From: Escherichia coli
Lineage (GTDB): Bacteria > Pseudomonadota > Gammaproteobacteria > Enterobacterales > Enterobacteriaceae
NCBI RefSeq assembly: GCF_016903815.1
Contig: NZ_CP069973.1
Length of the DNA stretch: 64,000 nucleotides
Direction: 5' to 3' (one strand)
Below the pieces are notes generated by a model that had not been told where the DNA came from, did no database searches, and was given only the letters and a program-made list of their open reading frames with translations. The position numbers and the translations under genes are program-made. Each line of letters starts with the position of its first letter. Positions within the stretch are counted from its first letter, which is position 1. Shown one piece after another: positions 11,127-59,352 of the stretch.

Positions 11127-11765
11127 GGGAGTTCTACCGCAGGGGCGGGGAACTCCAAGTGATGTCCATCATCGCATCCAGTGCGTCCGGTTTATCCCCG
11201 CTGACGCGGGGAACACGTCAATAGGCGGCGTCCCGTAGCCGTCCCCTTCGGTTTATCCCCGCTGGCGCGGGGAACACGTTGAGGTCGATAAGTACGAACG
11301 GTTTCCCTGCGGTTTATCCCCGCTGGCGCGGGGAACACGATCGCCTGCTCCAGCGTCACTCCCTGCCCCTCGATTTATCCCCGCTGGCGCGGGGAACACT
11401 TCTGATACGTACTGAGGCCGGTTGTGATACGCGATTTATCCCCGCTGGCGCGGGGAACACTAACCCCCAATGAAGTTAATAAAGTCTATGGCCGATTTAT
11501 CCCCGCTGGCGCGGGGAACACATGAGATTAAAATACTCAGTACTCTTACTCGCCGATTTATCCCCGCTGGCGCGGGGAACACCAGCGTGGCGCGATAAAG
11601 CAATGTGTCTGGCTCGATTTATCCCCGCTGGCGCGGGGAACACCAGAGGCAACCGACGCGGATTCAGTAGGAAAGCGATTTATCCCCGCTGGCGCGGGGA
11701 ACACCGATAGACACTTTGCGGTCATTGTCTATTCGGCGATTTATCCCCGCTGGCGCGGGGAACAC
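11127..11765 (-). CRISPR. Type I-E CRISPR array: 10 regular 29-bp repeats plus one degenerate terminal repeat, 10 spacers of 32 bp
   Basis: Plus-strand repeat cggtttatccccgctggcgcggggaacac at 61-bp period. Repeats start ~11188, 11249, 11310, 11371, 11432, 11493, 11554, 11615, 11676, 11737; degenerate repeat ~11127..11155. AT-rich leader on the cas2 side, so transcription runs toward iap. Confidence 0.97.
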
Positions 11766-20617: not shown

Positions 20618-20770
20618 CTACTTCTTCGATTCGTAAGCGAGAACTGCCTTAAACTCCATACCACGTTCTCTGATACTCAACTCACACAACGAGTCGCCTA
20701 CCATCAGCGTGAATCCCAGTACTGTACAACACAGTACGATGATTGCCACAAGGGCATATTTTGTCAGCAT
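20618..20770 (-). CDS. Hok/Gef-family type I toxin (HokE-like small membrane peptide)
   Basis: 50-codon ORF not in the track (too short): [53 protein letters not shown] with GGAGG 6 nt upstream; single N-terminal TM helix; conserved Hok C-terminus (LCE...AVLAYE). Translated by hand. Confidence 0.8.
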
Positions 20771-21034
20771 GTCTTGCCTCCCTGCAAAGAAGAGACTAAC
20801 ATTCGAATTGCTTAGGTTCGAACGCTGGCCTCAGGTTGATAGAAATATCGCCTGGGGCTTTTGTCCATCTGGAACCTCGCGAATGCTTAACGCCAGACAG
20901 CCTCAAGCACCCAACGCCATTCTATACCTGATAATTCTTCCAGCGGCGTTCACGTTTAAAATCAGGAATGCTGCTCGCAAAATAAAAACGCCCCCATCAT
21001 TTCTGACAGAGGCGTTTAATTTATCCGGCAATAT

Positions 21035-26112: not shown

Positions 26113-27384
26113 ATGGAAGACAACTGCGACATTATTATTATTGGTGCCGGTATAGCAGGTACCGCTTGTGCTTTACGCTGCGCGCGGGCAGGTTTGTCCG
26201 TTCTGTTACTGGAACGCGCTGAAATCCCCGGCAGCAAAAATCTTTCCGGCGGGCGTTTATACACCCATGCGCTCGCGGAACTCCTCCCGCAATTTCATCT
26301 GACCGCGCCTCTTGAACGACGCATCACTCACGAAAGCCTTTCTCTGCTAACGCCGGATGGCGCAACGACGTTTTCCAGCTTACAGCCCGGCGGTGAATCC
26401 TGGAGTGTATTACGTGCACGGTTCGATCCGTGGCTGGTTGCCGAAGCCGAAAAAGAAGGTGTCGAATGCATCCCCGGTGCGACGGTGGATGCGCTGTATG
26501 AAGAAAACGGCAGGGTGTGTGGTGTCATTTGTGGTGACGATATTCTCCGCGCCCGTTATGTGGTGCTGGCAGAAGGTGCCAACAGCGTCCTGGCTGAACG
26601 TCACGGGTTAGTGACTCGTCCTGCTGGCGAAGCGATGGCGTTGGGGATCAAAGAAGTGCTGTCGCTGGAAACATCCGCTATTGAAGAACGTTTTCATCTG
26701 GAGAATAACGAAGGCGCAGCGTTGCTGTTCAGCGGCGGGATCTGTGATGACTTACCCGGCGGCGCATTTCTTTATACTAATCAACAAACGCTCTCGTTAG
26801 GGATTGTTTGCCCGCTCTCTTCCCTTACGCAAAGTCGTGTTCCGGCAAGCGAGCTGCTGGCTCGCTTTAAAACGCATCCGGCAGTGCGCCCGCTTATCAA
26901 AAACACGGAATCACTGGAGTATGGTGCGCATCTGGTGCCAGAAGGTGGCTTGCACAGTATGCCGGTGCAATACGCCGGTAACGGCTGGCTGCTGCTGGGC
27001 GATGCGTTGCGCAGTTGCGTCAATACCGGAATTTCCGTGCGCGGCATGGATATGGCGCTAACTGGCGCGCAGGCGGCGGCACAAACGCTGATAAGCGCCT
27101 GCCAGCACCGCGAGCCGCAAAATCTGTTTCCGCTTTATCATCACAACGTCGAGCGCAGCCTGCTATGGGATGTTCTACAACGTTATCAGCATGTTCCGGC
27201 GCTTTTGCAACGCCCTGGCTGGTACCGTGCGTGGCCTGCGTTAATGCAGGATATTTCCCGCGATTTATGGGATCAGGGTGATAAACCTGTTCCACCGCTG
27301 CGCCAGTTATTCTGGCGTCATTTACGTCGTCACGGCCTGTGGCATCTGGCGGGCGATGTTATCAGGAGTCTGCGATGTCTGTAG
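26113..27384 (+). CDS. ygcN: FAD-dependent oxidoreductase, FixC/ETF-QO-like (YgcN)
   Basis: Track ORF 26083..27384 trimmed to MEDNCDIIIIGAGIAG... (Rossmann GxGxxG), about 423 aa. Symbol from K-12 gene order. Confidence 0.85.
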   Translation: MEDNCDIIIIGAGIAGTACALRCARAGLSVLLLERAEIPGSKNLSGGRLYTHALAELLPQFHLTAPLERRITHESLSLLTPDGATTFSSLQPGGESWSVLRARFDPWLVAEAEKEGVECIPGATVDALYEENGRVCGVICGDDILRARYVVLAEGANSVLAERHGLVTRPAGEAMALGIKEVLSLETSAIEERFHLENNEGAALLFSGGICDDLPGGAFLYTNQQTLSLGIVCPLSSLTQSRVPASELLARFKTHPAVRPLIKNTESLEYGAHLVPEGGLHSMPVQYAGNGWLLLGDALRSCVNTGISVRGMDMALTGAQAAAQTLISACQHREPQNLFPLYHHNVERSLLWDVLQRYQHVPALLQRPGWYRAWPALMQDISRDLWDQGDKPVPPLRQLFWRHLRRHGLWHLAGDVIRSLRCL

Positions 27385-27635
27385 CCCGTAATCTCTGGCG
27401 CGTTGCCGATGCGCCGCACATTGTTCCGGCTGACTCCGTTGAGCGCCAGACGGTACAACGGTTGATTAACGCTTGTCCGGCTGGTCTTTTTTCGCTCACA
27501 CCGGAAGGTGACTTACGCGTTGATTATCGCGGCTGCCTGGAGTGTGGCACCTGCCGTTTGCTGTGCGACGAATCAACACTACAACAGTGGCGCTATCCGC
27601 CTTCCGGATTCGGCATCACCTACCGCTTTGGATAA
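27375..27635 (+). CDS. ygcO: Ferredoxin-like protein, FixX-like (YgcO)
   Basis: Track ORF 27339..27635 trimmed to MSVARNLWR..., about 86 aa; Cys cluster CLECGTCRLLC; start overlaps ygcN stop. Confidence 0.8.
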   Translation: MSVARNLWRVADAPHIVPADSVERQTVQRLINACPAGLFSLTPEGDLRVDYRGCLECGTCRLLCDESTLQQWRYPPSGFGITYRFG

Positions 27636-27651
27636 ATAATAAGGATAATTT

Positions 27652-28227
27652 ATGCCCCTCTTACACCTGCTCCGCCAGAATCCGGTGATTGCTGCCGTTA
27701 AAGATAATGCCAGCCTGCAACTGGCAATCGATTCTGAATGCCAGTTTATTTCAGTGTTGTACGGCAATATCTGCACCATCAGTAATATCGTTAAAAAGAT
27801 TAAAAACGCCGGAAAATATGCCTTTATTCATGTTGATTTGCTGGAAGGCGCATCGAACAAAGAAGTGGTGATTCAGTTTCTGAAACTGGTGACCGAGGCG
27901 GACGGCATTATCAGCACGAAAGCATCGATGCTGAAAGCGGCAAGAGCGGAAGGTTTTTTCTGTATTCATCGCCTGTTTATTGTTGATTCGATTTCGTTTC
28001 ACAACATTGATAAGCAAGTTGCGCAATCGAATCCGGATTGTATTGAGATCCTGCCAGGCTGTATGCCTAAAGTGCTGGGCTGGGTGACGGAGAAAATCCG
28101 CCAACCGCTGATTGCCGGCGGGCTGGTGTGCGATGAAGAAGATGCGCGTAATGCGATTAACGCGGGTGTTGTGGCGCTTTCCACCACGAATACCGGGGTC
28201 TGGACGTTAGCGAAAAAATTGCTTTGA
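27652..28227 (+). CDS. ygcP: GlpP-like glycerol-3-phosphate-responsive antiterminator family protein (YgcP)
   Basis: 191-aa ORF at the K-12 ygcP position. Family assignment is from memory of the K-12 annotation. Confidence 0.75.
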   Translation: MPLLHLLRQNPVIAAVKDNASLQLAIDSECQFISVLYGNICTISNIVKKIKNAGKYAFIHVDLLEGASNKEVVIQFLKLVTEADGIISTKASMLKAARAEGFFCIHRLFIVDSISFHNIDKQVAQSNPDCIEILPGCMPKVLGWVTEKIRQPLIAGGLVCDEEDARNAINAGVVALSTTNTGVWTLAKKLL

Positions 28228-28290
28228 CGGGATACTCGTAACGAGTTGAATTTGTGTGATTTGTAGGCTGCACGCCACATCCGACATTCA

Positions 28291-28310
28291 GCGCCTGATG
28301 CGACGCTTGA
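28291..28310. repeat. Left half of a REP palindrome disrupted by IS insertion
   Basis: gcgcctgatgcgacgcTTGA immediately left of the IS; joined to the right half it rebuilds a typical REP. Confidence 0.75.
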
Positions 28311-28840
28311 TGAACTGCACCCCAAATGTTGGACATAATCTGACATCTGAAGGTGCAGTTTATGAAACATTCATTTGAAGTAAAACTTGCCGCTGTAAAT
28401 CATTACCTGGCTGGTCATGCAGGCATCATTTCTACGGCAAAACTCTTTCAACTTTCTCACACCAGCCTCTCACACTGGATTAATCTTTTTCTTCTTCACG
28501 GTCCTCGGGCACTGGATTGCAGACACAAGCGTAGCTATTCTCCTGAAGATAAACTTTGCGTGGTTCTTTATGCTCTCGGGCATTCTGAGTCTCTACCCCG
28601 GGTAGCTGCCCGGTTTAACATTCCCAGCCACAACACGGTTAAAAACTGGATAAAAGGCTACCGCAAATCTGGTAATGAGGCCTTTATCAGGCGCAGGAAG
28701 GAGAAAAGCATGACCCGTTCTGATGATACCCATGAAAACGAGGCAAACATGACGCCGGAAGAGATGAAGAATGAGCTACGTTATCTTCGCGCAGAAAATG
28801 CATATCTGAAAGCCATGCAGGAGCATCTCCTGGAAAAAAA

Positions 28841-29761
<921 letters not shown>

Positions 29762-29809
29762 TTACAAGTCCCCAGCCCGAAACCGTAGGCAGGATCATCC
29801 GGCTGCACG

Positions 29810-30670
29810 TTATTGGCATTCTGCGTGAATGTTTGTCACCAGTGCCTCCAGCACCACTTTCCAGTCATCAACCACGCCAACATCTGCCTGTGAAAATACC
29901 GCTGCGCTGGCGTCATGATTAATCGCCACCACAAACTTGCTATTGCGTACGCCCGCCATTAACGCTGCTGCGCCGGAAGCGCCAACAACAATACACACCT
30001 CAGGTGCCAGCAGATGTCCAGAAATACCAATCACTTTTTCGGCATCAACGCCACCGTTCATCACTCGTGCCCGACTGTAGCCCACTTCGGCTCCCAGCTT
30101 TTCTGCCAGCATAGCGATTTCCTGGTTATCTGCCTCTCCGCCCTGCCCCACCACCAGCACCCGTCTGGCCTCAGCTAATGGGTCGCGGGTAACATTTTTC
30201 AGGTTTTCTATGCTAACCAGCCAGTCGGGAAGCGCACCTGGGACAATGTTCAGTTGCTGCATACCAGAGGGCAACGTGGCGTTTTTATCTGCTCCCGCCT
30301 GACGTGCCAGCGAAAGGCATAGCGGGCGTTTTTCTGTTTGCAGCGTCGCCGTTAGCGCATTTCCCCAGTGGGATTTGCGCACGCTTACGGTTGGAATATC
30401 TAACGAAGTCACCTGGCAGATGCTTGCACCATGTAAACGCCAGGCCAGCCGGGTCGACAGTTCATCGCCAAACGTTCCCGGCGGAAAGAGAACAACGTCC
30501 GCTGGCGTTCGCTGCCACTGTTCCACCAGCGCATCCAGCACCTGTTCCGCCACAGCGGGCTGAGGTTCAATCTTCCAGTGCGCCAGGGTACAACCGCTGA
30601 AATCCTGCGCCGCCTGCCAGCTCGCTGTTGCGGCATTCTCCTGATTTATTGTCACAATTGCGATATTCAT
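29810..30670 (-). CDS. ygcQ: Electron transfer flavoprotein alpha-subunit-like (FixB-like) YgcQ
   Basis: Track ORF 29810..30703 trimmed to MNIAIVTIN..., about 286 aa. Symbol from K-12 gene order. Confidence 0.82.
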   Translation of the reverse strand: MNIAIVTINQENAATASWQAAQDFSGCTLAHWKIEPQPAVAEQVLDALVEQWQRTPADVVLFPPGTFGDELSTRLAWRLHGASICQVTSLDIPTVSVRKSHWGNALTATLQTEKRPLCLSLARQAGADKNATLPSGMQQLNIVPGALPDWLVSIENLKNVTRDPLAEARRVLVVGQGGEADNQEIAMLAEKLGAEVGYSRARVMNGGVDAEKVIGISGHLLAPEVCIVVGASGAAALMAGVRNSKFVVAINHDASAAVFSQADVGVVDDWKVVLEALVTNIHAECQ

Positions 30671-31446
30671 GGCTGCATCCTTTGGCGTAAATAGTCCTGC
30701 CATAGCTTTTGCGCTTTTTCTGCTACCGTTTGCCCATCAATCAGCGTCGCTCCGCGTTGTTGCTCTGCTCTTGCCAGTTGCAGACACTGCATCGCTGGCG
30801 ATTCGGCAGCAACAGTTTTACGGATAATTGCTGCTTTCCCCACCGCCATTCGCTGACGCATTCCCGGTACTGGCAAGGCCACTTCACCGCACTGACGCAC
30901 GGCAATCACCGCAGGCAAGCGAACCCGGCAACAGCGCAGCCCGTTTTCAGTACGCTGTTCAAGGGTGATAAACGGCGCGTCGAGAGTAAAACGCTCCACC
31001 TGGGTGAAGCAGGGCCAGCCCAGCATTTCCGCCAGCAAAAATGGCGTTTGCCCATTCTGCCCTTCGCTGCTTTGGCAGCCAGTAATTATCAGCTCCAGCG
31101 GATTCTGGTACTGCCATTCGGCAATATGGCGAGCGACAAATTCCGGCGCAAAGCGCAGATCTGCCGCCGTCTCCAGCAATACAGCTTCCTCAAACCCAAG
31201 AGCCATAAGATAGCGCAGCCAGTGCAACGCCCGTTCATCCCCCATGCTCAACGCGGTTAAAGACATCGACGTACCGTTTTTTCTCTGCGCCAACAGCAGC
31301 GCGGCGGCAGCCTGTTCATCAGCACCGAGCAAACTTCGCAGAAGCGAAACATCCGGTCCGCTATTACCCTGAGCCGCCGCCTGCCACTCTTTTTCCGCCA
31401 GCATTCCGGCATCCGGTTCGGCTTTAAACGCTAACAGAATGTTCAT
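30667..31446 (-). CDS. ygcR: Electron transfer flavoprotein beta-subunit-like (FixA-like) YgcR
   Basis: Track ORF 30667..31461 trimmed to MNILLAFKAEPD..., about 259 aa; stop overlaps ygcQ start. Confidence 0.82.
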   Translation of the reverse strand: MNILLAFKAEPDAGMLAEKEWQAAAQGNSGPDVSLLRSLLGADEQAAAALLLAQRKNGTSMSLTALSMGDERALHWLRYLMALGFEEAVLLETAADLRFAPEFVARHIAEWQYQNPLELIITGCQSSEGQNGQTPFLLAEMLGWPCFTQVERFTLDAPFITLEQRTENGLRCCRVRLPAVIAVRQCGEVALPVPGMRQRMAVGKAAIIRKTVAAESPAMQCLQLARAEQQRGATLIDGQTVAEKAQKLWQDYLRQRMQP

Positions 31447-32761
31447 TCGCACCTCCAACATTTCCCGCCGCCACCAGCGGGAGTGCTTTGGTTTCTGGTG
31501 CCCATAGCCAGGTCACGACAAAACCAACCAACAACACTGCCGCCAGGAGCAATAAGGTGACTTGCATTCCCCACTGCGCCAGCACCCACGGCAGCAGGCC
31601 AGTACTTACCGCCGCGCCCAACCGACTCATGGCGGTGGCAAAACCGACGCCCAGCGAGCGAATGTCAGTAGGAAAACTTTCCGCAGGCAAAATGCCCACC
31701 AGATTACTGACTGCCGAAATGGTGGTGCTGAAGAGAACAAAAAGCAGCAGCGTTAATGAACTGCCGGAAGGCAAACAAGCCATCACTACCAGCGTTGCCG
31801 CCAGCAGCAAAAAACTTCCCAGCAAAAATTTGCGATGTGCCAGCAGGTGCGTCAGAACTAATCCCAGCAGCGCACCCACAATTAACAACGCATTAAGCAT
31901 CAGGCTAGCGGTCAACGCATCTTCCAGACCAATAGTCTGGGCGATAGTTGGCAGCCAGGTATAAATCACAAACCATGGGATTACGAGGCAGACAAAGAAG
32001 ACGCTGTTAAACGCTGTGCGCCGCCAGTAGCGCGAAGAGAACAAGGTTTTGATGTGTTTATGGGTCGCCGTTGCCACTTCATCGCCCAGTAAAACATGGG
32101 GACCAAAATAGCGATGCACGATAGCGTGAGCTTCTGCAAAACGCCCCTGGCGCAGTAGCCAGCGTGGCGATTCTGGCGTTCCCCAGCGTAATAACGTAAT
32201 CAACAATGCGGGCAGAGCTGCCGATGCCAGCAGCCAGCGCCAGGCCTCCGGGCTTTCGCTAATAAAGTGATGTCCGGCAATACTTGCCAGCACATAGCCT
32301 ACAGTCCACACCACGCTGAACGCGCCCAGCAAAATACCGCGGTGGCGGCGCGGGGAAAATTCAGCCAGCAAGGTGTGACCGACTGAGTAATCGCCTCCCA
32401 GACCAATGCCAATCAAAATGCGCAGTCCAATAAGATGCTCTGGCGTGGTGGCAAAAAATTGTAAAAACGAAGCAAGCGTAATCAGCAAAAAGCTGAAGGT
32501 GAAGATTTTTTGTCGCCCAATATGGTCGGAGATCCAGCCCAGAACCAGGCTGCCAAGAAACAAACCAAGGAGTGCTGAGCCGCCAATCATTCCCGCCATA
32601 AACGGCGTCAGTTGCATGGCGGGCGTAAGCTGAATAATGGCGTAACCAATGACGCCGAGGACATAACCGTCGGTCAGGTGTGCGCCGAAAGTGAGCGCAG
32701 CAATGCGGCAGTGAAAACGGTTAAGTGGTAAATCATCCATTCGCACCGGTGAAGTGTTCAT
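31424..32761 (-). CDS. ygcS: MFS-superfamily transporter (sugar-porter-like) YgcS
   Basis: Track ORF 31424..32833 trimmed to MNTSPVRMDDLPLNRF..., about 445 aa; multi-pass hydrophobic. Confidence 0.85.
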   Translation of the reverse strand: MNTSPVRMDDLPLNRFHCRIAALTFGAHLTDGYVLGVIGYAIIQLTPAMQLTPFMAGMIGGSALLGLFLGSLVLGWISDHIGRQKIFTFSFLLITLASFLQFFATTPEHLIGLRILIGIGLGGDYSVGHTLLAEFSPRRHRGILLGAFSVVWTVGYVLASIAGHHFISESPEAWRWLLASAALPALLITLLRWGTPESPRWLLRQGRFAEAHAIVHRYFGPHVLLGDEVATATHKHIKTLFSSRYWRRTAFNSVFFVCLVIPWFVIYTWLPTIAQTIGLEDALTASLMLNALLIVGALLGLVLTHLLAHRKFLLGSFLLLAATLVVMACLPSGSSLTLLLFVLFSTTISAVSNLVGILPAESFPTDIRSLGVGFATAMSRLGAAVSTGLLPWVLAQWGMQVTLLLLAAVLLVGFVVTWLWAPETKALPLVAAGNVGGANEHSVSV

Positions 32762-32854
32762 CTTTATCCCTTCATTGTCCGGTAATAAGAACGGCTTCTC
32801 GCCTGAGAAGCCGAAAAGGCAACGCCCCGTCATCGCGGAACGCTGCCTGACACA

Positions 32855-34309
32855 TTATTTTTCAATCGGATAGATAGTACCCGTATTCATAATGCCGTTA
32901 GGATCGAACTGCTTTTTCAGACCTTCCAGCAACGTCCACGCGCTGCCGTGTTCCAGCTTGCTCCAGTGAACGCGATGTTTACCAATGCCGTGGTGGTGCA
33001 CCATCGAACCACCGAGGCGAATGGTTTCTTCGCAGATGATTTTGTTGAGCGGATTGTGGTACTTGTCGATTTCCTCTTCCGGCTTACAGTCAACAACGTT
33101 GTAGTCGTAAACGAAGTACATGTTGGTGCCGTTCTGGTAGCTGTGAGAGGAGTGACCGCCCAGCATGGTGATGTCGTCGGCGTGCGGGAACTCGGTACGA
33201 ATACGGTTAATAACGCTTTCGTAGATTTCGTGAATGCAGCTCCAGCAGCCGGACACTTCGGTGGTAAAGCCCATGTTGCCGGTTTTGAGGATCTGCACAC
33301 GTTCGGCAGCTACTTTATCCGGTCCCCAGTTCAGGTTGTTAAACCAGGTTTCGATCAGCTTGCTGTCCACTCGCTGGCATTGCGGGTAACGTGCCACGAT
33401 TTCAGCAATCCCTTCGCCCGTCGCCTTCGCAATGCGAGGGTTACCTTCAGCCATAAAGATCAGCACGCATTTTCCGTCAGCAAAATGGGTGAAGTGTTGG
33501 GTGCCATCTTCAGCGTCATACAAACGAGCGATCGACGGACGATACCCTTCCACCATGATTTCACGCAGGATGTTGAAGCCGGTTTTCATGTCTTCCAGGA
33601 TATAGCCGTAGAAGAGGTTGTTTTCCGGGGTGAACTTAAAGATTTTCACAGTTACTTCAGTGATATAGCACAATGCACCTTCGTTGCCGATGATGATGTG
33701 ACGAATGTCCGGGCCTGCCGCGCGGCGTGGTACGTTTTTAATGCGTGTTACGGTGCCATCAGCCAATACTGCTTCCAGACCAACGACCATATCTTCGATT
33801 GCGCCGTAGAGTGTGGAGAACTGCCCGATACTGCGGGTTGCTACCAGGCCGCCCATCTGCGCCAGCGGCTTTGACTGCGGAGAATGCCCCGTGGTGTAAC
33901 CTTTTTCACGCAACGCGTTTTCCAGCACTTCCAGCGGAACTCCGCATTGCGCCGTGGCCTGCATATTCTCAATATCAATATTAATGATTTGATTCATGGC
34001 AGAGCCGTCGAGCACCACCGAGTTTTCCACAACGGTTTCCAGCCCACCTTCGGTAGCGGAAGCACCGGTACGCGGCACACCGTTAATTTTGTGCGCATTC
34101 ATAAAATTCAGCACACGGGATACTTGTTCTGTGGAACCGAGTTTTACGACCGCTGCCGGAATCGGCAAAGTATAAATGCCATGAATATCCGGAAATTTGC
34201 GAAAACGGTCAATACTGTTCTTCTTTAATACTGTTTCATCGGTAATTACGCGATCTGCACCAACAATTTCCTTTAGCTGGTCGACAATCGCTGCGCGAGA
34301 TAAAGACAT
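32855..34309 (-). CDS. ygcU: FAD-linked oxidase (alkyl-DHAP-synthase/glycolate-oxidase-like) YgcU
   Basis: 484-aa ORF at the K-12 ygcU position. Family assignment is from memory of the K-12 annotation. Confidence 0.82.
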   Translation of the reverse strand: MSLSRAAIVDQLKEIVGADRVITDETVLKKNSIDRFRKFPDIHGIYTLPIPAAVVKLGSTEQVSRVLNFMNAHKINGVPRTGASATEGGLETVVENSVVLDGSAMNQIINIDIENMQATAQCGVPLEVLENALREKGYTTGHSPQSKPLAQMGGLVATRSIGQFSTLYGAIEDMVVGLEAVLADGTVTRIKNVPRRAAGPDIRHIIIGNEGALCYITEVTVKIFKFTPENNLFYGYILEDMKTGFNILREIMVEGYRPSIARLYDAEDGTQHFTHFADGKCVLIFMAEGNPRIAKATGEGIAEIVARYPQCQRVDSKLIETWFNNLNWGPDKVAAERVQILKTGNMGFTTEVSGCWSCIHEIYESVINRIRTEFPHADDITMLGGHSSHSYQNGTNMYFVYDYNVVDCKPEEEIDKYHNPLNKIICEETIRLGGSMVHHHGIGKHRVHWSKLEHGSAWTLLEGLKKQFDPNGIMNTGTIYPIEK

Positions 34310-34378
34310 AGTAATTCCTTCCTGATAATAAAAATGGAATAATCATTAATAAGAGAAAACAGAAACCACCGTTATGGA

Positions 34379-35164
34379 TTAGCGCACTAAATAACCACCA
34401 TCAACCACTAATAAATGTCCGTTGACATAATTCGATGCCGGACTTGCGAGGAATACGGCTGCGCCCATTAAATCCTGAGTATCGCCCCAACGGTTTGCCG
34501 GAATATGATCAAGAACGCGCTGATTGGTTTCTGGATTACTGCGTGTCGCCAGCGTAATATCTGTTGCATAATAGCCAGGGGCAATACCATTTACCTGAAT
34601 ATTATATTGACCTAGTTCATCACAGTAAGCTTTGGTGAATCCGGCAAGAGCATGTTTAGTGGCAGAATATGCAGGTGACCATTGTCCACCTAAGTAAGAG
34701 AATAATGAACAGATATTAATGATTTTACCGCTTTTCTGCGGGATCATAATTTTTGCAGCTTCATAGCTTAACTCGAATGCGGCGGTCAGGTTCACATCAA
34801 TCATCGGGTCCCAGTCGGCACGACCGAAGTCCAGCACCTTATTCAGCTTACAAATACCGGCATTGTTAATCAGAATATCGACGGTACCGAAACGTTCGCA
34901 ACAGGCGGCGATTATCTTCTGCGGCGCTCCTTCTGCGGTGATATCCACCTGCATGAAGTCCACCTCAACACCCTGTTTTTCAATCATTTCCTTTGTTTCG
35001 CCGTTATCTTTAACGAAGCTTGGAATAAAGATATTTGCGCCTGCTTTGGCCAGCGCCATGGCAAATGCCTGGCCTAAACCGCTATTCCCGCCGGTAACAA
35101 TTGCGGTTTTACCTTTCAGGGAGAAAAAATCCATTGAGAGCGCATTGAGAGATTCGATTGACAT
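34379..35164 (-). CDS. ygcW: Short-chain dehydrogenase/reductase YgcW
   Basis: Track ORF 34379..35239 trimmed to MSIESLNALSMDFF..., about 261 aa; SDR motifs TGGNSGLG and YSATKHA. Confidence 0.88.
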   Translation of the reverse strand: MSIESLNALSMDFFSLKGKTAIVTGGNSGLGQAFAMALAKAGANIFIPSFVKDNGETKEMIEKQGVEVDFMQVDITAEGAPQKIIAACCERFGTVDILINNAGICKLNKVLDFGRADWDPMIDVNLTAAFELSYEAAKIMIPQKSGKIINICSLFSYLGGQWSPAYSATKHALAGFTKAYCDELGQYNIQVNGIAPGYYATDITLATRSNPETNQRVLDHIPANRWGDTQDLMGAAVFLASPASNYVNGHLLVVDGGYLVR

Positions 35165-35482
35165 AGTTAGCTCCAATTTCCGTAAGGCAAAAAAAAAGAA
35201 AGGTAACTTCCCCCGCGAGAGGGAAGTTACCTTTCTCATTATCTCTGGTAACTGGAGATAATTTTTATCATAAGGGCATAATCGCTAATGTGATCGTAAT
35301 CACAGTGTGATATTCGAATTGTCAAATAATTTTAAAAAGCAGAAGCGTGATTACTCTCACACAACACCACTGCTTTCCATGTTATTTCTTATTGCAATTA
35401 CTAGAGACCTGAGAAAAGTAATCCACCTGAAAGGGCGGCTTACTTTTCTCTTTTTTTTGTCTATTACAAATGGGAATACGAT

Positions 35483-36760
35483 ATGCAACACAACTCATAT
35501 CGCCGTTGGATAGCCCTCGCGATAATTAGTTTTAGCGGCGGCGTTAGTTTCGACCTGGCTTATTTACGTTATATTTATCAAATTCCCATGGCGAAATTTA
35601 TGGGATTCAGCAATACCGAGATAGGTTTAATAATGAGTACATTTGGTATTGCGGCCATTATTCTTTATGCCCCCAGCGGCGTTATTGCCGATAAATTTTC
35701 ACACCGCAAAATGATTACTTCCGCGATGATCATTACCGGATTACTGGGTCTGTTAATGGCAACATATCCACCGCTGTGGGTAATGCTCTGTATTCAGGTC
35801 GCCTTTGCGATAACCACTATTTTAATGCTGTGGTCGGTGTCGATTAAAGCCGCCTCATTGCTGGGCGATCATAGCGAGCAAGGGAAAATTATGGGCTGGA
35901 TGGAAGGGCTGCGCGGCGTCGGTGTAATGTCGCTGGCGGTGTTTACCATGTGGGTCTTTTCTCGCTTCGCTCCGGATGACAGCGCCAGTCTGAAAACGGT
36001 CATCATCATCTATAGTGTGGTTTACATCTTGTTGGGGATTCTGTGCTGGTTTTTTGTTAGCGATAACAACAATCTGCGCAGTGCCAATAACGAAGAAAAA
36101 CAGTCATTCCAGCTTAGCGACATCCTGGCCGTTTTGCGCATCAGCACCACCTGGTATTGCAGCATGGTGATTTTTGGCGTCTTCACCATCTACGCCATTC
36201 TGAGTTACTCCACCAACTATCTGACCGAAATGTACGGCATGTCGCTGGTGGCGGCGAGCTACATGGGGATTGTGATCAACAAAATCTTCCGCGCGCTGTG
36301 CGGCCCACTTGGCGGCATTATCACCACCTACAGCAAAGTGAAATCCCCTACCCGCGTGATCCAAATCCTTTCCGTACTCGGCTTGCTGGCGTTAACTGCC
36401 CTGCTCGTCACGAACTCTAACCCGCAATCGGTCGCGATGGGGATTGGCCTGATTTTACTGCTGGGATTCACCTGTTACGCCTCACGCGGGCTGTACTGGG
36501 CCTGCCCTGGCGAAGCGAGAACACCGTCTTACATTATGGGCACCACGGTAGGTATTTGTTCGGTGATTGGATTCCTGCCGGATGTCTTCGTTTACCCGAT
36601 TATCGGCTACTGGCAAGACACCCTGCCCGCTGCAGAAGCCTACCGCAATATGTGGCTGATGGGCATGGCGGCGCTTGCCATGGTGATCGTCTTTACCTTT
36701 TTGCTGTTCCAAAAAATTCGTACTGCTGATAGCGCCCCTGCTATGGCTAGCAGCAAGTAA
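35483..36760 (+). CDS. yqcE: MFS-superfamily transporter YqcE
   Basis: 425-aa multi-pass hydrophobic ORF; ATG start. Confidence 0.85.
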   Translation: MQHNSYRRWIALAIISFSGGVSFDLAYLRYIYQIPMAKFMGFSNTEIGLIMSTFGIAAIILYAPSGVIADKFSHRKMITSAMIITGLLGLLMATYPPLWVMLCIQVAFAITTILMLWSVSIKAASLLGDHSEQGKIMGWMEGLRGVGVMSLAVFTMWVFSRFAPDDSASLKTVIIIYSVVYILLGILCWFFVSDNNNLRSANNEEKQSFQLSDILAVLRISTTWYCSMVIFGVFTIYAILSYSTNYLTEMYGMSLVAASYMGIVINKIFRALCGPLGGIITTYSKVKSPTRVIQILSVLGLLALTALLVTNSNPQSVAMGIGLILLLGFTCYASRGLYWACPGEARTPSYIMGTTVGICSVIGFLPDVFVYPIIGYWQDTLPAAEAYRNMWLMGMAALAMVIVFTFLLFQKIRTADSAPAMASSK

Positions 36761-36786
36761 GTCCAGAAAATTACAGGAGAAAAATC

Positions 36787-38265
36787 ATGTCGAAAAAATA
36801 CATCATAGGGATTGATGGTGGAAGTCAGAGCACAAAAGTGGTGATGTACGATCTGGAAGGTAATGTGGTTTGCGAAGGCAAAGGCTTATTGCAGCCGATG
36901 CACACGCCAGATGCCGATACCGCAGAACATCCTGACGACGATTTATGGGCATCATTATGCTTTGCCGGTCACGATTTGATGAGTCAGTTTGCCGGAAATA
37001 AAGAAGATATTGTCGGTATTGGTCTGGGATCCATCCGTTGCTGCCGTGCGTTATTGAAAGCCGATGGCACGCCAGCTGCGCCGTTGATTAGCTGGCAGGA
37101 TGCACGCGTTACACGCCCTTACGAACATACGAATCCTGACGTGGCATATGTCACCTCTTTTTCGGGTTATCTGACGCATCGCTTAACCGGCGAGTTTAAA
37201 GACAATATCGCCAACTATTTTGGTCAGTGGCCGGTGGATTATAAGACCTGGGCATGGAGTGAAGATGCCGCAGTCATGGAGAAGTTTAATATCCCCCGTC
37301 ATATGCTGTTTGATGTGCAAATGCCGGGCACTGTTCTTGGGCATATCACTCCTCAAGCCGCTCTGGCGACACATTTCCCGGCTGGGCTGCCGGTTGTTTG
37401 TACCACCAGTGATAAACCGGTAGAAGCACTGGGAGCCGGGTTACTGGATGATGAAACTGCGGTAATTTCTCTTGGCACTTACATCGCGTTGATGATGAAC
37501 GGCAAATTACTACCGAAAGATCCGGTAGCGTACTGGCCGATTATGTCTTCTATTCCGCAAACCTTGCTGTATGAAGGTTACGGTATTCGCAAAGGCATGT
37601 GGACGGTGAGCTGGCTACGCGACATGTTAGGCGAGTCGTTAATTCAGGATGCCAAAGCACAGGATCTTTCACCGGAAGATTTGCTCAACAAAAAAGCGTC
37701 TTGTGTGCCGCCAGGCTGTAATGGTCTGATGACGGTGCTGGACTGGCTGACCAATCCGTGGGAACCGTACAAACGCGGGATTATGATTGGCTTTGATTCC
37801 AGCATGGATTACGCATGGATATATCGTTCGATACTGGAAAGCGTGGCGCTGACGCTGAAGAACAATTACGACAATATGTGTAATGAAATGAATCACTTTG
37901 CAAAGCATGTGATCATTACTGGCGGCGGTTCGAACAGCGATCTGTTTATGCAGATTTTTGCCGACGTGTTCAACCTTCCGGCACGCCGTAACGCCATTAA
38001 TGGTTGTGCAAGCCTGGGGGCAGCGATTAATACGGCGGTAGGTCTGGGGCTATACCCGGATTACGCAACGGCTGTCGACAAAATGGTTCGCGTGAAAGAT
38101 ATCTTTATGCCTGTTGAGAGCAACGCCAAACGCTACAACGCGATGAATAAAGGCATTTTCAAGGAGTTAACCAAACATACTGATGTAATCCTGAAAAAAT
38201 CGTATGAAGTGATGCATGGGGAATTGGGGAATGCGGATTCGATCCAGAGCTGGTCGAATGCGTAA
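36787..38265 (+). CDS. ygcE: FGGY-family carbohydrate kinase YgcE
   Basis: 492-aa ORF with N-terminal IGIDGGSQSTK sugar-kinase motif. Coordinates taken from the track; my base count placed the ATG 1 bp earlier. Confidence 0.88.
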   Translation: MSKKYIIGIDGGSQSTKVVMYDLEGNVVCEGKGLLQPMHTPDADTAEHPDDDLWASLCFAGHDLMSQFAGNKEDIVGIGLGSIRCCRALLKADGTPAAPLISWQDARVTRPYEHTNPDVAYVTSFSGYLTHRLTGEFKDNIANYFGQWPVDYKTWAWSEDAAVMEKFNIPRHMLFDVQMPGTVLGHITPQAALATHFPAGLPVVCTTSDKPVEALGAGLLDDETAVISLGTYIALMMNGKLLPKDPVAYWPIMSSIPQTLLYEGYGIRKGMWTVSWLRDMLGESLIQDAKAQDLSPEDLLNKKASCVPPGCNGLMTVLDWLTNPWEPYKRGIMIGFDSSMDYAWIYRSILESVALTLKNNYDNMCNEMNHFAKHVIITGGGSNSDLFMQIFADVFNLPARRNAINGCASLGAAINTAVGLGLYPDYATAVDKMVRVKDIFMPVESNAKRYNAMNKGIFKELTKHTDVILKKSYEVMHGELGNADSIQSWSNA

Positions 38266-38311: not shown

Positions 38312-38449
38312 TGGTTATCCCCGCTGGCGCGGGGAACATAAGTTCGACAACTTAAAAAATGATAACAAGTCCGGTTTATCCCCGCTGATGCAGGGAACAT
38401 AATAAAAACTTTAACTAGTTCGGTTTATCCCTGTTTTTACAAGGAATAT
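38312..38449 (-). CRISPR. Degenerate CRISPR remnant (three decayed I-E-like repeats)
   Basis: tggttatccccgctggcgcggggaaca (~38312), cggtttatccccgctgatgcagggaacat (~38372), cggtttatccctgtttttacaaggaatat (~38421); irregular spacing; AT-rich sequence follows. Confidence 0.7.
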
Positions 38450-38902: not shown

Positions 38903-39236
38903 TGGTTTATTCCCGCTGGTGCGGGGAACTCATCAGTGATATCCAACATTGCGGAGCTAAACGCGGTTTATCCCCGCTGGCGCGGGGAACTCTAATATCC
39001 CTGGCGATAATCAACCGGCTTACTCGGTTTATCCCCGCTGGCGCGGGGAACTCGAGAGCGAGGGGAGATTCCGGCAGGGCGTGCACGGTTTATCCCCGCT
39101 GGCGCGGGGAACTCGCGGGTATGCTCCGCTCCGTGTTCGACAAACTCGGTTTATCCCCGCTGGCGCGGGGAACTCAAGGTCGCGGGGACGCCACGGGCAG
39201 TCAATGTCGGTTTATCCCCGCTGGCGCGGGGAACTC
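38903..39236 (-). CRISPR. Second type I-E CRISPR array: 6 repeats (first degenerate), 5 spacers of 32 bp
   Basis: Repeat cggtttatccccgctggcgcggggaactc at 61-bp period, starting ~38903 (degenerate tggtttattcccgctggtgcggggaactc), 38964, 39025, 39086, 39147, 39208. AT-rich leader on the queE side. Confidence 0.95.
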
Positions 39237-40246: not shown

Positions 40247-40539
40247 AGCATTCTCTGTGAAGTGGATAATTGTTAATTATTGCAGATCCTGCCACAACAA
40301 TCATGTCTTATTAACATTCTGTTACAGGCAGGTTTAAAGAAAAATGAGAAACAGATCGTTAATAATAAAAGGGAGTAACGTATTATGTCAGAAATAAATA
40401 AAGTAAAGGGATTTAATCATGTCAAAAACATTCACCAAAATTATACTTATTTTTTCTGTGTTCGTTTTTAATTATAACGAATCTCAAATTACCGATGCCG
40501 CCGTCAATTTATTTATCCAGCTTTAATGGGACATTTATA

Positions 40540-58941: not shown

Positions 58942-58986
58942 AAAGCAACCTCAATAAGAAAAACTGCCGCGAAGGATAGCAGGAAT

Positions 58987-59352
58987 AAAAAAAGGGAGCA
59001 CTGTATTCACAGTGCTCCCGGTTCGTTTCGCAGCATTCCAGCTACTTTTGTTGCTCCCTGCTCATCCTTGACAACTTTTCCTCTGGCCTTGCGGCCAATC
59101 GTTCATCCTGAACTATTGCTTCCTGCTCACACCACCCCGATGTGATACTTCATCCTGAAGTGTCCCTGGCCTTCCTGACCCACCGAATCATCCTGACCGG
59201 TTCTCATTCTCCATCCTGGAGGTGTCCTTTAACGCGTCCTGCGTCATCCTCTTCGCTTCATCCAGAAGCCTTTCCCTGAAACACCATCCTGGTGTGTCCT
59301 TCAGAAGTGTCATCATCCTGATGTTCACTTCGTTGTCTGACTCCCTGTCGAC
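58987..59352 (-). ncRNA. csrB: CsrB small RNA (CsrA-sequestering sRNA)
   Basis: About 365-nt non-coding region on the minus strand carrying about 18 GGA motifs, many as CAGGAUG (plus-strand catcctg). 3' terminator hairpin gggagcactg...cagtgctccc plus U-run at ~58987..59019. 5' end approximate. Confidence 0.85.

Follow-up and report, generated by a model that had tools for sequence, protein, structure and literature searches.

A conserved kinase-dehydrogenase-flavoenzyme core and a leader RNA element in the ygc locus of Escherichia coli, with a candidate substrate class

Introduction

On which compound do the products of the ygcNOP, ygcWUSRQ and yqcE-ygcE genes of Escherichia coli act, and what switches these genes on? 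The locus occupies positions 26113-38265 of the stretch analysed here, 64,000 nucleotides of E. coli DNA (contig NZ_CP069973.1) that we refer to as the window. Our preferred answer, offered tentatively and judged to fall just short of an even chance, is that the cluster is a catabolite-repressed, substrate-induced catabolic regulon whose enzymes would yield triose phosphate from a compound that resembles glycerol and is probably a quaternary ammonium. Two components of this answer go beyond the first-pass annotation of the window: a regulatory RNA that appears to tie the divergent operons to the regulator YgcP, and a link, in other phyla, to betaine-type transporters and methyltransferases.

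No pathway assignment for the cluster was found in the literature searched by gene name, a search that had most subscription journals and EcoCyc outside its scope, and searches combining FGGY, BCCT, MttB, GlpP, AGPS and trimethylhomoserine returned no paper on this gene set; none of the ten proteins received an equivalog-level assignment from NCBIfam. In a March 2026 PNAS paper YgcU is still an unassigned flavin adenine dinucleotide (FAD)-binding oxidoreductase, with no role in the D-serine response. The ygcR product has been seen on 2D gels of E. coli MC4100 (PMC2646832), deletion of ygcR gave a MazF-related 'death gene' phenotype, and overexpression of ygcS had only an indirect effect on nicotinamide mononucleotide production (PMC8601175). 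The remaining gene-name literature consists of promoter and CRP-site catalogues and of tables from systematic evolution of ligands by exponential enrichment (SELEX); one apparent ygcO paper proved to be a misspelling of ycgO.

The question matters because the cluster, which about 93% of complete E. coli genomes carry, is among those E. coli genes that have no experimental function. The present analysis yields a defined candidate cis-regulatory RNA, a putative regulator (YgcP), three enzymes with a predicted order, named residues of YgcU and a restricted substrate class.

Results

Gene content and intactness of the locus

Based on the list of open reading frames (ORFs) and megablast, the interval was recognised as the E. 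coli ygcNOP / ygcWUSRQ / yqcE-ygcE locus, and its 12,153 bp are 100% identical to E. coli strain 7/2 (NZ_CP023820.1). Gene coordinates were taken from the RefSeq annotation of NZ_CP023820.1 and converted to window positions, giving the order ygcN, ygcO, ygcP, the IS1397 transposase, ygcQ, ygcR, ygcS, ygcU, ygcW, yqcE and ygcE. The ten ygc/yqc genes are as follows (ETF, electron-transfer flavoprotein).

26113-27384 (+): ygcN, FixC-like FAD-dependent oxidoreductase, putative ETF:quinone oxidoreductase (RefSeq, NCBIfam)
27375-27635 (+): ygcO, FixX-like ferredoxin-family protein (RefSeq, NCBIfam)
27652-28227 (+): ygcP, GlpP-family (G3P_antiterm) protein, proposed ligand-dependent RNA-binding antiterminator (PDB 3kts match; PF04309 on orthologues)
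29810-30670 (-): ygcQ, ETF alpha-like subunit (Pfam)
30667-31446 (-): ygcR, ETF beta-like subunit (Pfam)
31424-32833 (-): ygcS, MFS transporter, sugar-porter / aromatic-acid / organic-cation-like, NiaP-like (NCBIfam)
32855-34309 (-): ygcU, predicted AGPS-type FAD enzyme with invariant R262, Y398 and H438-H440 (profile, structure model)
34379-35164 (-): ygcW, SDR oxidoreductase, KduD / gluconate-5-dehydrogenase-like (NCBIfam)
35483-36760 (+): yqcE, MFS transporter, weakly anion:cation-symporter-like (NCBIfam)
36787-38265 (+): ygcE, FGGY-family kinase (NCBIfam, structure-database match)

None of the ten translations contains an internal stop, and none of the genes carries a pseudogene flag in RefSeq record NZ_CP023820.1. 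By megablast the region was at least 80% covered in 5045 of 5426 complete E. coli genomes. Pairwise ratios of non-synonymous to synonymous substitution (dN/dS), calculated between the window genes and other Escherichia, Klebsiella, Citrobacter and Pluralibacter loci, were 0.01-0.05 for ygcU, ygcW, ygcP and ygcE (0.01-0.04 for each of ygcU and ygcP), 0.04-0.13 for the transporters and ygcN (ygcN 0.05-0.13), and 0.08-0.27 for ygcQ, ygcR and ygcO (ygcQ 0.13-0.20). Ratios are thus low throughout, and purifying selection acts on each of the ten genes; decay of the ETF genes to pseudogenes was ruled out by the same ratios and by their uninterrupted translation.

Much of the first-pass annotation was thereby confirmed. 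The ORF list and RefSeq agree with it on the kinds of genes and their positions, and its family calls (FixC/FixX-like, GlpP-like, ETF alpha/beta, two MFS transporters, FAD-linked oxidase, SDR, FGGY kinase) are upheld by NCBIfam, Pfam and PDB matches. The possibility that it had raised of pseudogenes among the ETF-like genes falls away on their open frames and dN/dS of 0.08-0.27. Its central claim, of an intact catabolic unit without an assigned pathway, is borne out by the open frames, the dN/dS values and, within the literature scope given above, by the absence of a published pathway, which also holds for its view that the substrate was undescribed.

A conserved core of kinase, SDR and flavoenzyme

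For a gene-neighbourhood comparison, which the first-pass annotation had recommended, one genome per species was scanned, and the ten window proteins were mapped onto each of the 67 resulting loci (numbered here with the prefix L). YgcW, YgcU and YgcE occur together in nearly every locus, both among these 67 and among 20 metagenome loci described below, the exceptions being a locus without a ygcW match (L070), one in which the ORF map misses ygcW and ygcU (L071), and some truncated loci. The trio spans five phylum-level groups (Enterobacterales, Vibrionaceae, Firmicutes, Desulfobacterota and Spirochaeta), with E. coli YgcU 71-73% identical to the proteins of Sporomusa, Alkalihalobacillus, Desulfobacula and Photobacterium, and ygcW 75-79% identical in Firmicutes. 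YgcP is nearly always present; halophilic bacilli carry an RpiR/SIS regulator that replaces it or stands beside it. On the 67-locus map, ETF genes are missing from Erwinia, Pantoea, Izhakiella and Serratia proteamaculans-type loci and from halophilic bacilli, and ygcN and ygcO are confined to Enterobacterales. Among Enterobacteriaceae, identity is about 90% for YgcU, YgcW and YgcP and goes down to about 45% for YgcQ, YgcR and YgcO. The yqcE gene always adjoins ygcE in Enterobacterales and Photobacterium, and anaerobe clusters add a second, GlcD-like oxidase and sometimes another EtfAB pair, the alpha subunit of which includes a ferredoxin domain.

Clustering of all neighbouring ORFs returned no further enzyme family recurring with the trio, besides transporters, regulators, ETF and the second oxidase, so that the pathway is expected to be short and its product should be a central (C3) metabolite. 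From these comparisons the conserved functional unit is the YgcE kinase, the YgcW SDR and YgcU, together with YgcP, and ygcQR and ygcNO are accessory. The earlier picture of an uptake, phosphorylation and oxidation module with its own electron chain therefore stands as regards an intact unit, and fails where it placed the ETF and FixCX-like proteins at the centre, these being missing from many orthologous clusters and diverging far more rapidly than the core proteins.

A number of individual loci deserve mention. In L019-L027 the ETF and FixCX-like proteins (ygcQ/R/O/N) are 39-62% identical to those of the window and the core about 90%; the divergence of the electron-transfer module could reflect fast co-evolution or replacement by transfer. 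In the ETF-less loci of Erwinia typographi (L036, 1-4260) and Serratia proteamaculans (L050, 1-4260), ygcS lies in a separate operon adjoining a LysR regulator, with genes for an aldo-keto reductase, for an aldehyde dehydrogenase and for a small protein similar, on inspection by eye, to formaldehyde-activating enzyme; this operon may be a downstream branch for a released head group. Immediately 5' of the BCCT-ygcW-ygcE-ygcU genes of Alkalihalobacillus oceani (L003, 1932-5984) are a Lyase_1 (aspartase/fumarase-family) gene, an aldehyde dehydrogenase, a zinc alcohol dehydrogenase and an OpuAC-type binding protein, a set that, speculatively, could oxidise and deaminate a betaine alcohol once it is released. 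Arabinose genes beside the Enterococcus canis cluster were judged an unrelated neighbour. Two contigs, one from a metagenome-assembled genome (MAG) labelled Planctomycetota (L006) and the other labelled Chryseobacterium sp. 18061 (L029), have ygc genes 89-100% identical to E. coli and are probably contamination or mis-binning in public assemblies.

Kinase, SDR and electron-transfer proteins

The closest relatives of YgcE are LsrK and the xylulokinase XylB. Against GlpK it is 21% identical and scores 101.7 bits, compared with an equivalog cut-off of 590, and it keeps the Arg of the GlpK Arg83-Glu84 glycerol-binding pair with Glu84 replaced by Cys; a role as glycerol kinase was rejected on the score, the identity and the loss of Glu84. 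The same observations count against an alternative in which YgcE would be a glycerol kinase, YgcU an ETF-linked glycerol-3-phosphate dehydrogenase and YgcP a glycerol-3-phosphate sensor. That arrangement of a kinase followed by a flavin dehydrogenase does resemble GlpK/GlpD, but it leaves the invariant SDR without a role and duplicates glpK, glpD and glpABC, which E. coli already has; we regard it as very unlikely.

YgcW falls just short of the KduD equivalog (NCBIfam PRK06935, 346.9 bits, cut-off 369) and also matches gluconate-5-dehydrogenase and GolD/DthD-type models. Together with the kinship of YgcE to LsrK and xylulokinase, the sugar-porter score of YgcS and the phosphosugar-type RpiR/SIS regulator used by bacilli, this speaks for an ordinary polyol or sugar-acid pathway (e.g. 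for a tetritol or pentitol), in which MFS import would be followed by YgcW oxidation of the polyol to a ketose and by YgcE phosphorylation. In a variant, the kinase would act first and YgcU would be a flavin polyol-phosphate dehydrogenase passing electrons through ETF to quinone, with no quaternary amine involved in E. coli. The model for this variant is the Brucella erythritol route, in which the FGGY kinase EryA acts first and the flavin dehydrogenase EryB then feeds the respiratory chain, and which needs isomerases. The kinase-then-flavin-dehydrogenase logic is shared; in contrast, EryB is GlpD-like rather than AGPS-like, and no isomerases are linked to the ygc cluster. More generally, a C4-C6 product would need an isomerase, epimerase or aldolase, and none recurs with the trio. 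With the further evidence on either side that is given in the following sections, we consider a polyol or sugar-acid pathway unlikely.

Among the electron-transfer proteins, YgcN scores 379 bits against NCBIfam PRK10015 and 364 bits against FixC, reaching neither cut-off (466 and 610, respectively), and YgcO scores 84 bits against FixX (cut-off 166). By these scores YgcN and YgcO appear to be clearly related FixC/FixX paralogues, not equivalogs. YgcQ matches Pfam ETF_alpha (PF00766, 2.3e-17, the full-length FAD-binding domain) and in part ETF (PF01012), and YgcR matches ETF (PF01012, 1.7e-14); both lie far under every NCBIfam ETF equivalog cut-off and are thus divergent ETF members. The genes etfB-etfA are found directly 3' of ygcU in six lineages. 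YgcQR and YgcN/O probably carry electrons from YgcU to quinone, with some uncertainty as to direction.

If electrons flowed the other way, YgcN/O and YgcQR would feed YgcU for a reductive step, e.g. an anaerobic reductive cleavage of a C1-X bond, as FixABCX does in carnitine reduction. YgcN/O are FixC/FixX-like, the E. coli fixABCX genes serve the reductive cai pathway, which has a BCCT transporter, and many carriers of the ETF version are anaerobes. Yet strictly aerobic or ETF-less lineages retain the trio, and LctD, the closest ETF-linked structural relative of YgcU, acts as a dehydrogenase in its complex, so that a reductive role seems highly improbable. As to the cai system itself, caiTABCDE-fixABCX likewise has FixA/B/C/X-type proteins dedicated to one catabolic operon, its substrate is a quaternary amine, and a BCCT carrier occurs in relatives of the ygc cluster; unlike it, the ygc cluster has entirely different enzymes, no coenzyme A-transferase or acyl-coenzyme A dehydrogenase genes, and MFS carriers rather than BCCT.

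YgcU resembles AGPS in predicted fold and catalytic residues

PF01565 and PF02913 (the PCMH-type FAD-binding and FAD-oxidase C-terminal domains) were recorded on all YgcU homologues, and the nearest solved relatives of YgcU are mammalian and Dictyostelium AGPS, ahead of glycolate oxidase, LctD and D-lactate dehydrogenases. A profile of 22 YgcU sequences (55-85% identity) matched AGPS with E=7.7e-63, the next family being glycolate oxidase (7.9e-38). The 484 residues of YgcU align to AGPS residues 162-440 and 524-652. Across the 22 sequences, invariant R262 and Y398 align with AGPS Arg419 and Tyr578, and invariant H438-H439-H440 (GGSmvHHHGiGK) aligns with the His615-617 HHH loop of AGPS (GGSlsHHHGvGK). 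Arg419, Tyr578 and the HHH loop are catalytic residues of AGPS, and the first two are altered in the Arg419His and Tyr578Phe mutants named in the titles of PDB entries 4bc7 and 4bca, respectively. Structure prediction, another check recommended at first pass, agreed: an AlphaFold2 model of YgcU (mean predicted local distance difference test, pLDDT, 83; predicted template-modelling score, pTM, 0.84) found its best fold match in AGPS (TM-score 0.81-0.83), with D-lactate dehydrogenases and LctD at about 0.76-0.78. The original description of YgcU as a FAD-linked oxidase thus stands at the level of the FAD family; as a generic GlcD-like oxidase it is superseded by an AGPS type on profile, residues and fold.

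Two parts of AGPS, its N-terminal region of about 160 residues and its 440-524 insert, are not present in the YgcU alignment. These form the fatty-alcohol or membrane-facing part of AGPS, and YgcU, though AGPS-like in fold and catalytic residues, is therefore no orthologue of the ether-lipid synthase. The reaction typical of the AGPS family replaces the substituent at C1 of a dihydroxyacetone phosphate (DHAP) derivative by way of a flavin N5 adduct. When ether lipids are made, AGPS acts together with an SDR (acyl/alkyl-DHAP reductase), and alkylglycerols are salvaged by a kinase; together, AGPS, the SDR and alkylglycerol kinase interconvert a 1-substituted glycerol, its 3-phosphate and the 1-substituted DHAP. 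Common to this eukaryotic set and the ygc core are the AGPS fold with the Arg/Tyr/HHH set in YgcU and its invariant SDR and kinase partners. The differences are that YgcU is soluble, bacterial and part of a catabolic operon, without the N-terminal region and the insert, that it is tied to ETF where AGPS has no net redox turnover, and that its proposed direction is cleavage and not synthesis. For the ether-lipid side of this comparison, the acyl/alkyl-DHAP reductase step is covered by PMC7517302. The AGPS assignment bears on both alternatives introduced above: AGPS-type enzymes bind a DHAP skeleton, as a glycerol route would require, and retention of the AGPS catalytic set is unlike a generic alcohol oxidase, which argues against a polyol route.

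At lower rank YgcU also matches GlcD, LctD and D-lactate dehydrogenase models and structures, and it adjoins ETF genes, as would be the case in a D-2-hydroxyacid (lactate/glycolate type) dehydrogenase-ETF system like LctBCD with the other genes unrelated. The best known such systems, Acetobacterium woodii Ldh-EtfAB (LctBCD) and the ETF-linked D-2-hydroxyglutarate dehydrogenase, resemble the ygc cluster in having a VAO/PCMH-fold flavoenzyme gene beside etfB-etfA, and the solved LctD-EtfAB complex (PDB 7qh2) shows how such flavoenzymes dock on ETF. Enzymes that oxidise 2-hydroxyacids have E-H-G where the AGPS type has its HHH loop. The E-H-G-(I/V)-G motif of these dehydrogenases is not found in YgcU, which has M-V-H-H-H-G-I-G-K instead, and YgcU was rejected as a 2-hydroxyacid dehydrogenase on this replacement of the metal/catalytic motif. 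Furthermore, a separate EHG-bearing oxidase stands beside YgcU in anaerobes (S-E-H-G-V-G-K in Sporomusa, L002), so that the LctD-like enzyme is the second oxidase and belongs to the anaerobe versions only, and the kinase and SDR are invariant partners of YgcU. We therefore disfavour a D-2-hydroxyacid system and consider it extremely unlikely.

A candidate antitermination RNA in both divergent leaders

Four regulatory features were located between ygcW and yqcE.

35189-35254 (-): leader RNA copy 1, in the ygcW 5' untranslated region (UTR); predicted antiterminator GUUACC/GGUAAC overlaps a 19-bp intrinsic terminator followed by U9 (model R1, 71.3 bits)
35267-35294 (-): sigma-70-like promoter of the ygcW operon, ATCACA-16-TATGAT (consensus scan only; position consistent with a leader start just downstream)
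35289-35304 (strand not given): CRP site TGTGATTACGATCACA, common to the divergent promoters (sequence; published binding)
35395-35458 (+): leader RNA copy 2, in the yqcE 5' UTR; predicted antiterminator AUUACU/AGUAAU, terminator followed by U8 (model R1, 58.8 bits)

The leader element is about 65 nt long, and its two copies flank a perfect CRP site. In the ygcW leader, a consensus scan placed the 19-bp hairpin and U9 at 35237-35196 (-), 30 nt 5' of the start codon, and this terminator is kept in every Enterobacterales locus as well as in Sporomusa, Photobacterium and a Syntrophomonadaceae MAG. A conserved GUUACU box 5' of the terminator is complementary to AGUAAC in the 5' arm of the terminator, so that the motif as a whole (GUUACU-AGAGA..GAGAAA-AGUAAC) overlaps the terminator. 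A covariance model, R1, was built from 32 copies; its matches, for which E-values are rough, are confined to leaders of this cluster, and in the window comprise only the two leaders and the reverse image of the palindrome. In E. coli the yqcE copy occurs once per genome in 5063 of 5426 genomes, 5000 of which match it at 99% identity or more, and it carries no annotation; the coding DNA around it is less well conserved, with 95-99% identity in most genomes.

Helix covariation was counted on 88 distinct leader sequences, the antiterminator helix lying outside the structure of the R1 model. The antiterminator helix is 98.5% paired and shows compensatory changes in three of six pairs (G-C to A-U in 26 sequences, U-A to C-G in 18, and A-U to G-C in 2), a score reached by none of 500 shuffles, with slid controls 19-55% paired. 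For the outer terminator helix the corresponding values are 97.7% and five of 11 pairs. Column 31 of the alignment pairs with column 8 in the antiterminator and with column 97 in the terminator, and it covaries with both; two helices that exclude each other and have one strand in common should behave in this way. Folding energies of the antiterminator alone are -6.4 and -1.4 kcal/mol for the two leaders, compared with -37 and -22 for the whole leaders, mostly contributed by the terminator; termination should therefore be the default, with a factor needed for its reversal. No Rfam 15 family covers the leaders at gathering score; sub-threshold matches to rliE, SurA, NrrF and microRNA families (E up to 1) were set aside as reflecting the terminator hairpin alone. 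Taken together, these features indicate that the leader element is a previously undescribed cis-regulatory RNA of predicted terminator/antiterminator type. The Escherichia-type ygcW leader also has an extra 8-bp hairpin at 35238-35262, AUUAUCUC...GAGAUAAU, which encloses the GUUACC box and could be an anti-antiterminator.

YgcP matches the Listeria glycerol uptake operon antiterminator (PDB 3kts, E=1.2e-27), with PF04309 on its orthologues, and is a clear member of the GlpP family, a point that would also suit the glycerol route. The element is present where YgcP is and absent where RpiR replaces YgcP: it was not found in the bacilli in which an RpiR/SIS regulator has taken its place, and the divergent Enterococcus canis locus has a weak copy between ygcP and ygcE. 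By analogy with GlpP, YgcP very probably pairs with the leader RNA, and would bind it when loaded with the product of the kinase. In Bacillus subtilis, glpD, glpFK and glpTQ each have a promoter followed by a GlpP site and a 5' UTR intrinsic terminator, which is overridden by GlpP with glycerol-3-phosphate (PMC9604022). Antitermination by YgcP is proposed because this paradigm matches the design of the ygc leaders and YgcP is of the GlpP family. The two systems share a G3P_antiterm protein, 5' UTR terminators, several operons with one leader design and added catabolite control. They differ in that the ygc host is a proteobacterium with control by CRP, the ygc leader motif is first defined here and has no Rfam match, and the controlled genes are not glycerol genes.

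The CRP site is bound in vivo, by chromatin immunoprecipitation sequencing in enterotoxigenic E. coli (PMC4287617), and also in vitro, where the Kd was estimated at about 1.7 nM (PMC12871828). CRP control is typical of sugar operons and is thus a further point in favour of a polyol route.

Betaine-type transporters and MttB-family genes share the element in other phyla

Outside Enterobacterales, BCCT genes were found within the cluster in Sporomusa, Alkalihalobacillus, Photobacterium and a Firmicutes MAG, and OpuC/OsmF-type ABC operons in L056, L063, L071 and many metagenome contigs; BCCT or Opu genes are in or beside the cluster in seven of 14 non-enterobacterial genome loci. The RNA element stands directly 5' of the BCCT genes in Sporomusa (L002, 16416-16477) and the Firmicutes MAG (L069, 9529-9594), directly 5' of a YqcE-like MFS gene in Photobacterium, and 5' of Opu operons in L092, L101 and L124 and, with weaker scores, in L063 and L071. 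The weaker-scoring copies before OpuC/OsmF-type ABC operons belong to two halophilic bacilli.

When metagenomes were scanned with the motif in its Firmicute form, 60 loci were returned, of which 20 held a total of 21 covariance-model matches. The usual architecture was ygcP-[RNA]-ygcW-ygcE-ygcU-etfB-etfA, often followed by an MttB-family gene, and beside such clusters stood either an Opu operon with its own RNA copy or an [RNA]-MttB-PanB-Opu operon. The MttB assignment is firmly supported by Pfam (PF06253, 4e-105) and by an NCBIfam score of 404 bits, which is below the cut-off for the pyrrolysine-type trimethylamine enzyme, and the MttB ORFs are free of in-frame stops. MttB proteins of the non-pyrrolysine kind remove methyl groups from quaternary amines, for instance glycine betaine, proline betaine and carnitine. 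Neither the BCCT nor the Opu proteins linked to the cluster received an equivalog-level assignment from NCBIfam; the nearest relatives of the Sporomusa BCCT are a solved trimethylamine transporter and BetP, and it keeps four of six aromatic-box residues that were checked. One RNA element thus precedes the enzymes, the betaine-type carriers and the methyltransferases, an arrangement that we take as direct evidence for their action on a single compound or its product. The sharing of the element with BCCT and OpuC transporters and MttB methyltransferases stands against a polyol route, and BCCT/Opu systems are not used for glycerol uptake.

In four lake-sediment loci (L075, L093, L096 and L097) the RNA-MttB operon is in every case preceded by a gene resembling octopine/nopaline dehydrogenase (PF02317). 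A PrpD-like gene is present in addition in L075 and L093, and L075 also has a GbsB-like iron alcohol dehydrogenase gene.

Discussion

A proposed pathway

We propose that, when cyclic AMP-CRP is present, both divergent promoters would fire and their transcripts would end in the leader. The substrate would end, on one side, in a diol like that of glycerol, and would bear a polar group that is probably a quaternary ammonium. On entry it would be phosphorylated by YgcE to a glycerol-3-phosphate analogue able to bind YgcP, and loaded YgcP would stabilise the antiterminator hairpin, allowing read-through into ygcW-U-S-R-Q and yqcE-ygcE. Following phosphorylation, YgcW would oxidise the 2-hydroxyl to give a 1-substituted DHAP, at C1 of which YgcU would apply AGPS-like flavin chemistry, breaking or oxidising the C1-X bond to yield a triose-phosphate-level compound and a released head group. 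Where present, YgcQR would accept electrons from YgcU, and YgcN/YgcO would pass them to quinone, as an accessory, lineage-specific branch.

The order of the kinase and SDR steps and the reaction of YgcU are matters that we infer, and the parts of the scheme differ in strength. That the substrate or the part released from it is a quaternary ammonium compound seems an evenly balanced proposition in the anaerobes, and a weaker one for E. coli with its MFS carriers. Phosphorylation of a glycerol-like end and its oxidation to a 1-substituted DHAP is a tentative suggestion, somewhat below that balance, and the breaking or oxidation of a C1-X bond by YgcU is more doubtful. In its most specific form, which we consider decidedly unlikely as it stands, the trio would run ether-lipid chemistry in reverse on a 1-substituted glycerol with a betaine-type head group, AGPS-type cleavage of the otherwise inert C1-O (or C1-N) bond releasing triose phosphate and a quaternary amine. 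Example substrates for such a reaction would be the head group left by deacylation of a betaine lipid, for instance glyceryl-trimethylhomoserine, or some glyceryl-choline compound related to it. The substrates weighed, none of which was established, were glycerophosphocholine, deacylated betaine lipids, (2,3-dihydroxypropyl)trimethylammonium and carnitine-derived ketones.

Several observations weigh against a glycerol-like quaternary-ammonium substrate processed in this way. The main tension lies between the redox-neutral chemistry of AGPS and the tight linkage of a dedicated ETF to ygcU in the six lineages noted above; it would be resolved either if YgcU had become a net dehydrogenase or if the ETF keeps the YgcU flavin oxidised. 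E. coli has two MFS carriers and no BCCT or Opu system, so that the quaternary-amine proposal is carried over from other phyla by analogy, on 65-73% enzyme identity. The cluster-linked BCCT keeps the BetP aromatic box only in part, with W194 replaced by L and W373 by N. The metagenome loci were picked by the RNA motif, and many are close soda-lake or lake-sediment relatives, so that they represent few lineages and not independent counts. Finally, the enzyme activities and the binding of YgcP to the leader are predictions from sequence and analogy.

Whatever the substrate, the leader element would be a new example of protein-mediated antitermination in Enterobacterales. Should AGPS-type cleavage prove true, it would represent new flavoenzyme chemistry in catabolism and the first catabolic role for an AGPS-type enzyme. 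The pathway would then also provide a new and widespread entry for methylated-amine carbon, from E. coli to soda-lake anaerobes, under a protein-dependent RNA switch, and a new gut and sediment route feeding or releasing methylated amines, with a bearing on trimethylamine and methane formation.

Insertion sequence, CRISPR arrays and other features of the window

The locus also contains an insertion sequence (IS) placed in a repetitive extragenic palindromic (REP) unit.

28293-28310 (strand not given): left half of the interrupted REP palindromic unit, GCCTGATGCGACGC + TTGA
28311-29742 (+): IS1397 (IS3 family), 1432 bp, terminal inverted repeats TGAACTGCACCCC / TGAACTGAACCCC, 4-bp TTGA target duplication
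29743-29761 (strand not given): right half of the interrupted REP unit, TTGA + CGCGTCTTATCAGGC

IS1397 is inserted in the loop of the REP unit GCCTGATGCGACGC-TTGA-CGCGTCTTATCAGGC, between the stop codons of the convergent genes ygcP and ygcQ; insertion into REP loops is a known habit of this element. The reconstructed empty site was found in 4814 of 5426 E. coli genomes (100% match to NZ_CP021175.1) and the occupied junction in 284 of the 5426. The IS1397 copy thus varies between strains, lies in a REP outside the genes and leaves every gene and operon whole: the first-pass annotation had correctly located it between two convergent halves, and its description of the cluster as split by the element does not hold.

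Repeats of clustered regularly interspaced short palindromic repeat (CRISPR) arrays lie at 11190-11763, 38313-38398 and 38905-39234. The two-repeat mini-array 38313-38398, which begins 48 bp past the ygcE stop codon, precedes the six-repeat array 38905-39234; the RefSeq annotation covers the latter and not the former. The upstream array is about 14 kb from the cluster, with the cas operon, hok/sok, cysHIJ and queD in between. Arrays do lie on either side, as first annotated, in what is the normal E. coli arrangement; their flanking of the cluster is incidental and has no significance for it. Window layout and annotation gave no functional tie between the arrays and the ygc cluster, and a functional link of the cluster to the IS or the arrays was rejected on site occupancy and array positions.

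Elsewhere in the window, a hok/sok-type toxin-antitoxin locus was identified between cas3 and cysH (20755-20912 (-) and about 20618-20770; Rfam sok 111.7 bits, with an annotated Hok/Gef family coding sequence). A short frameshifted hypothetical coding sequence with a RefSeq pseudogene flag lies in the queE-ygcG interval (about 40385-40526), and a full-length CsrB small RNA is found at 58984-59343 (-) (Rfam RF00018, 382.9 bits).

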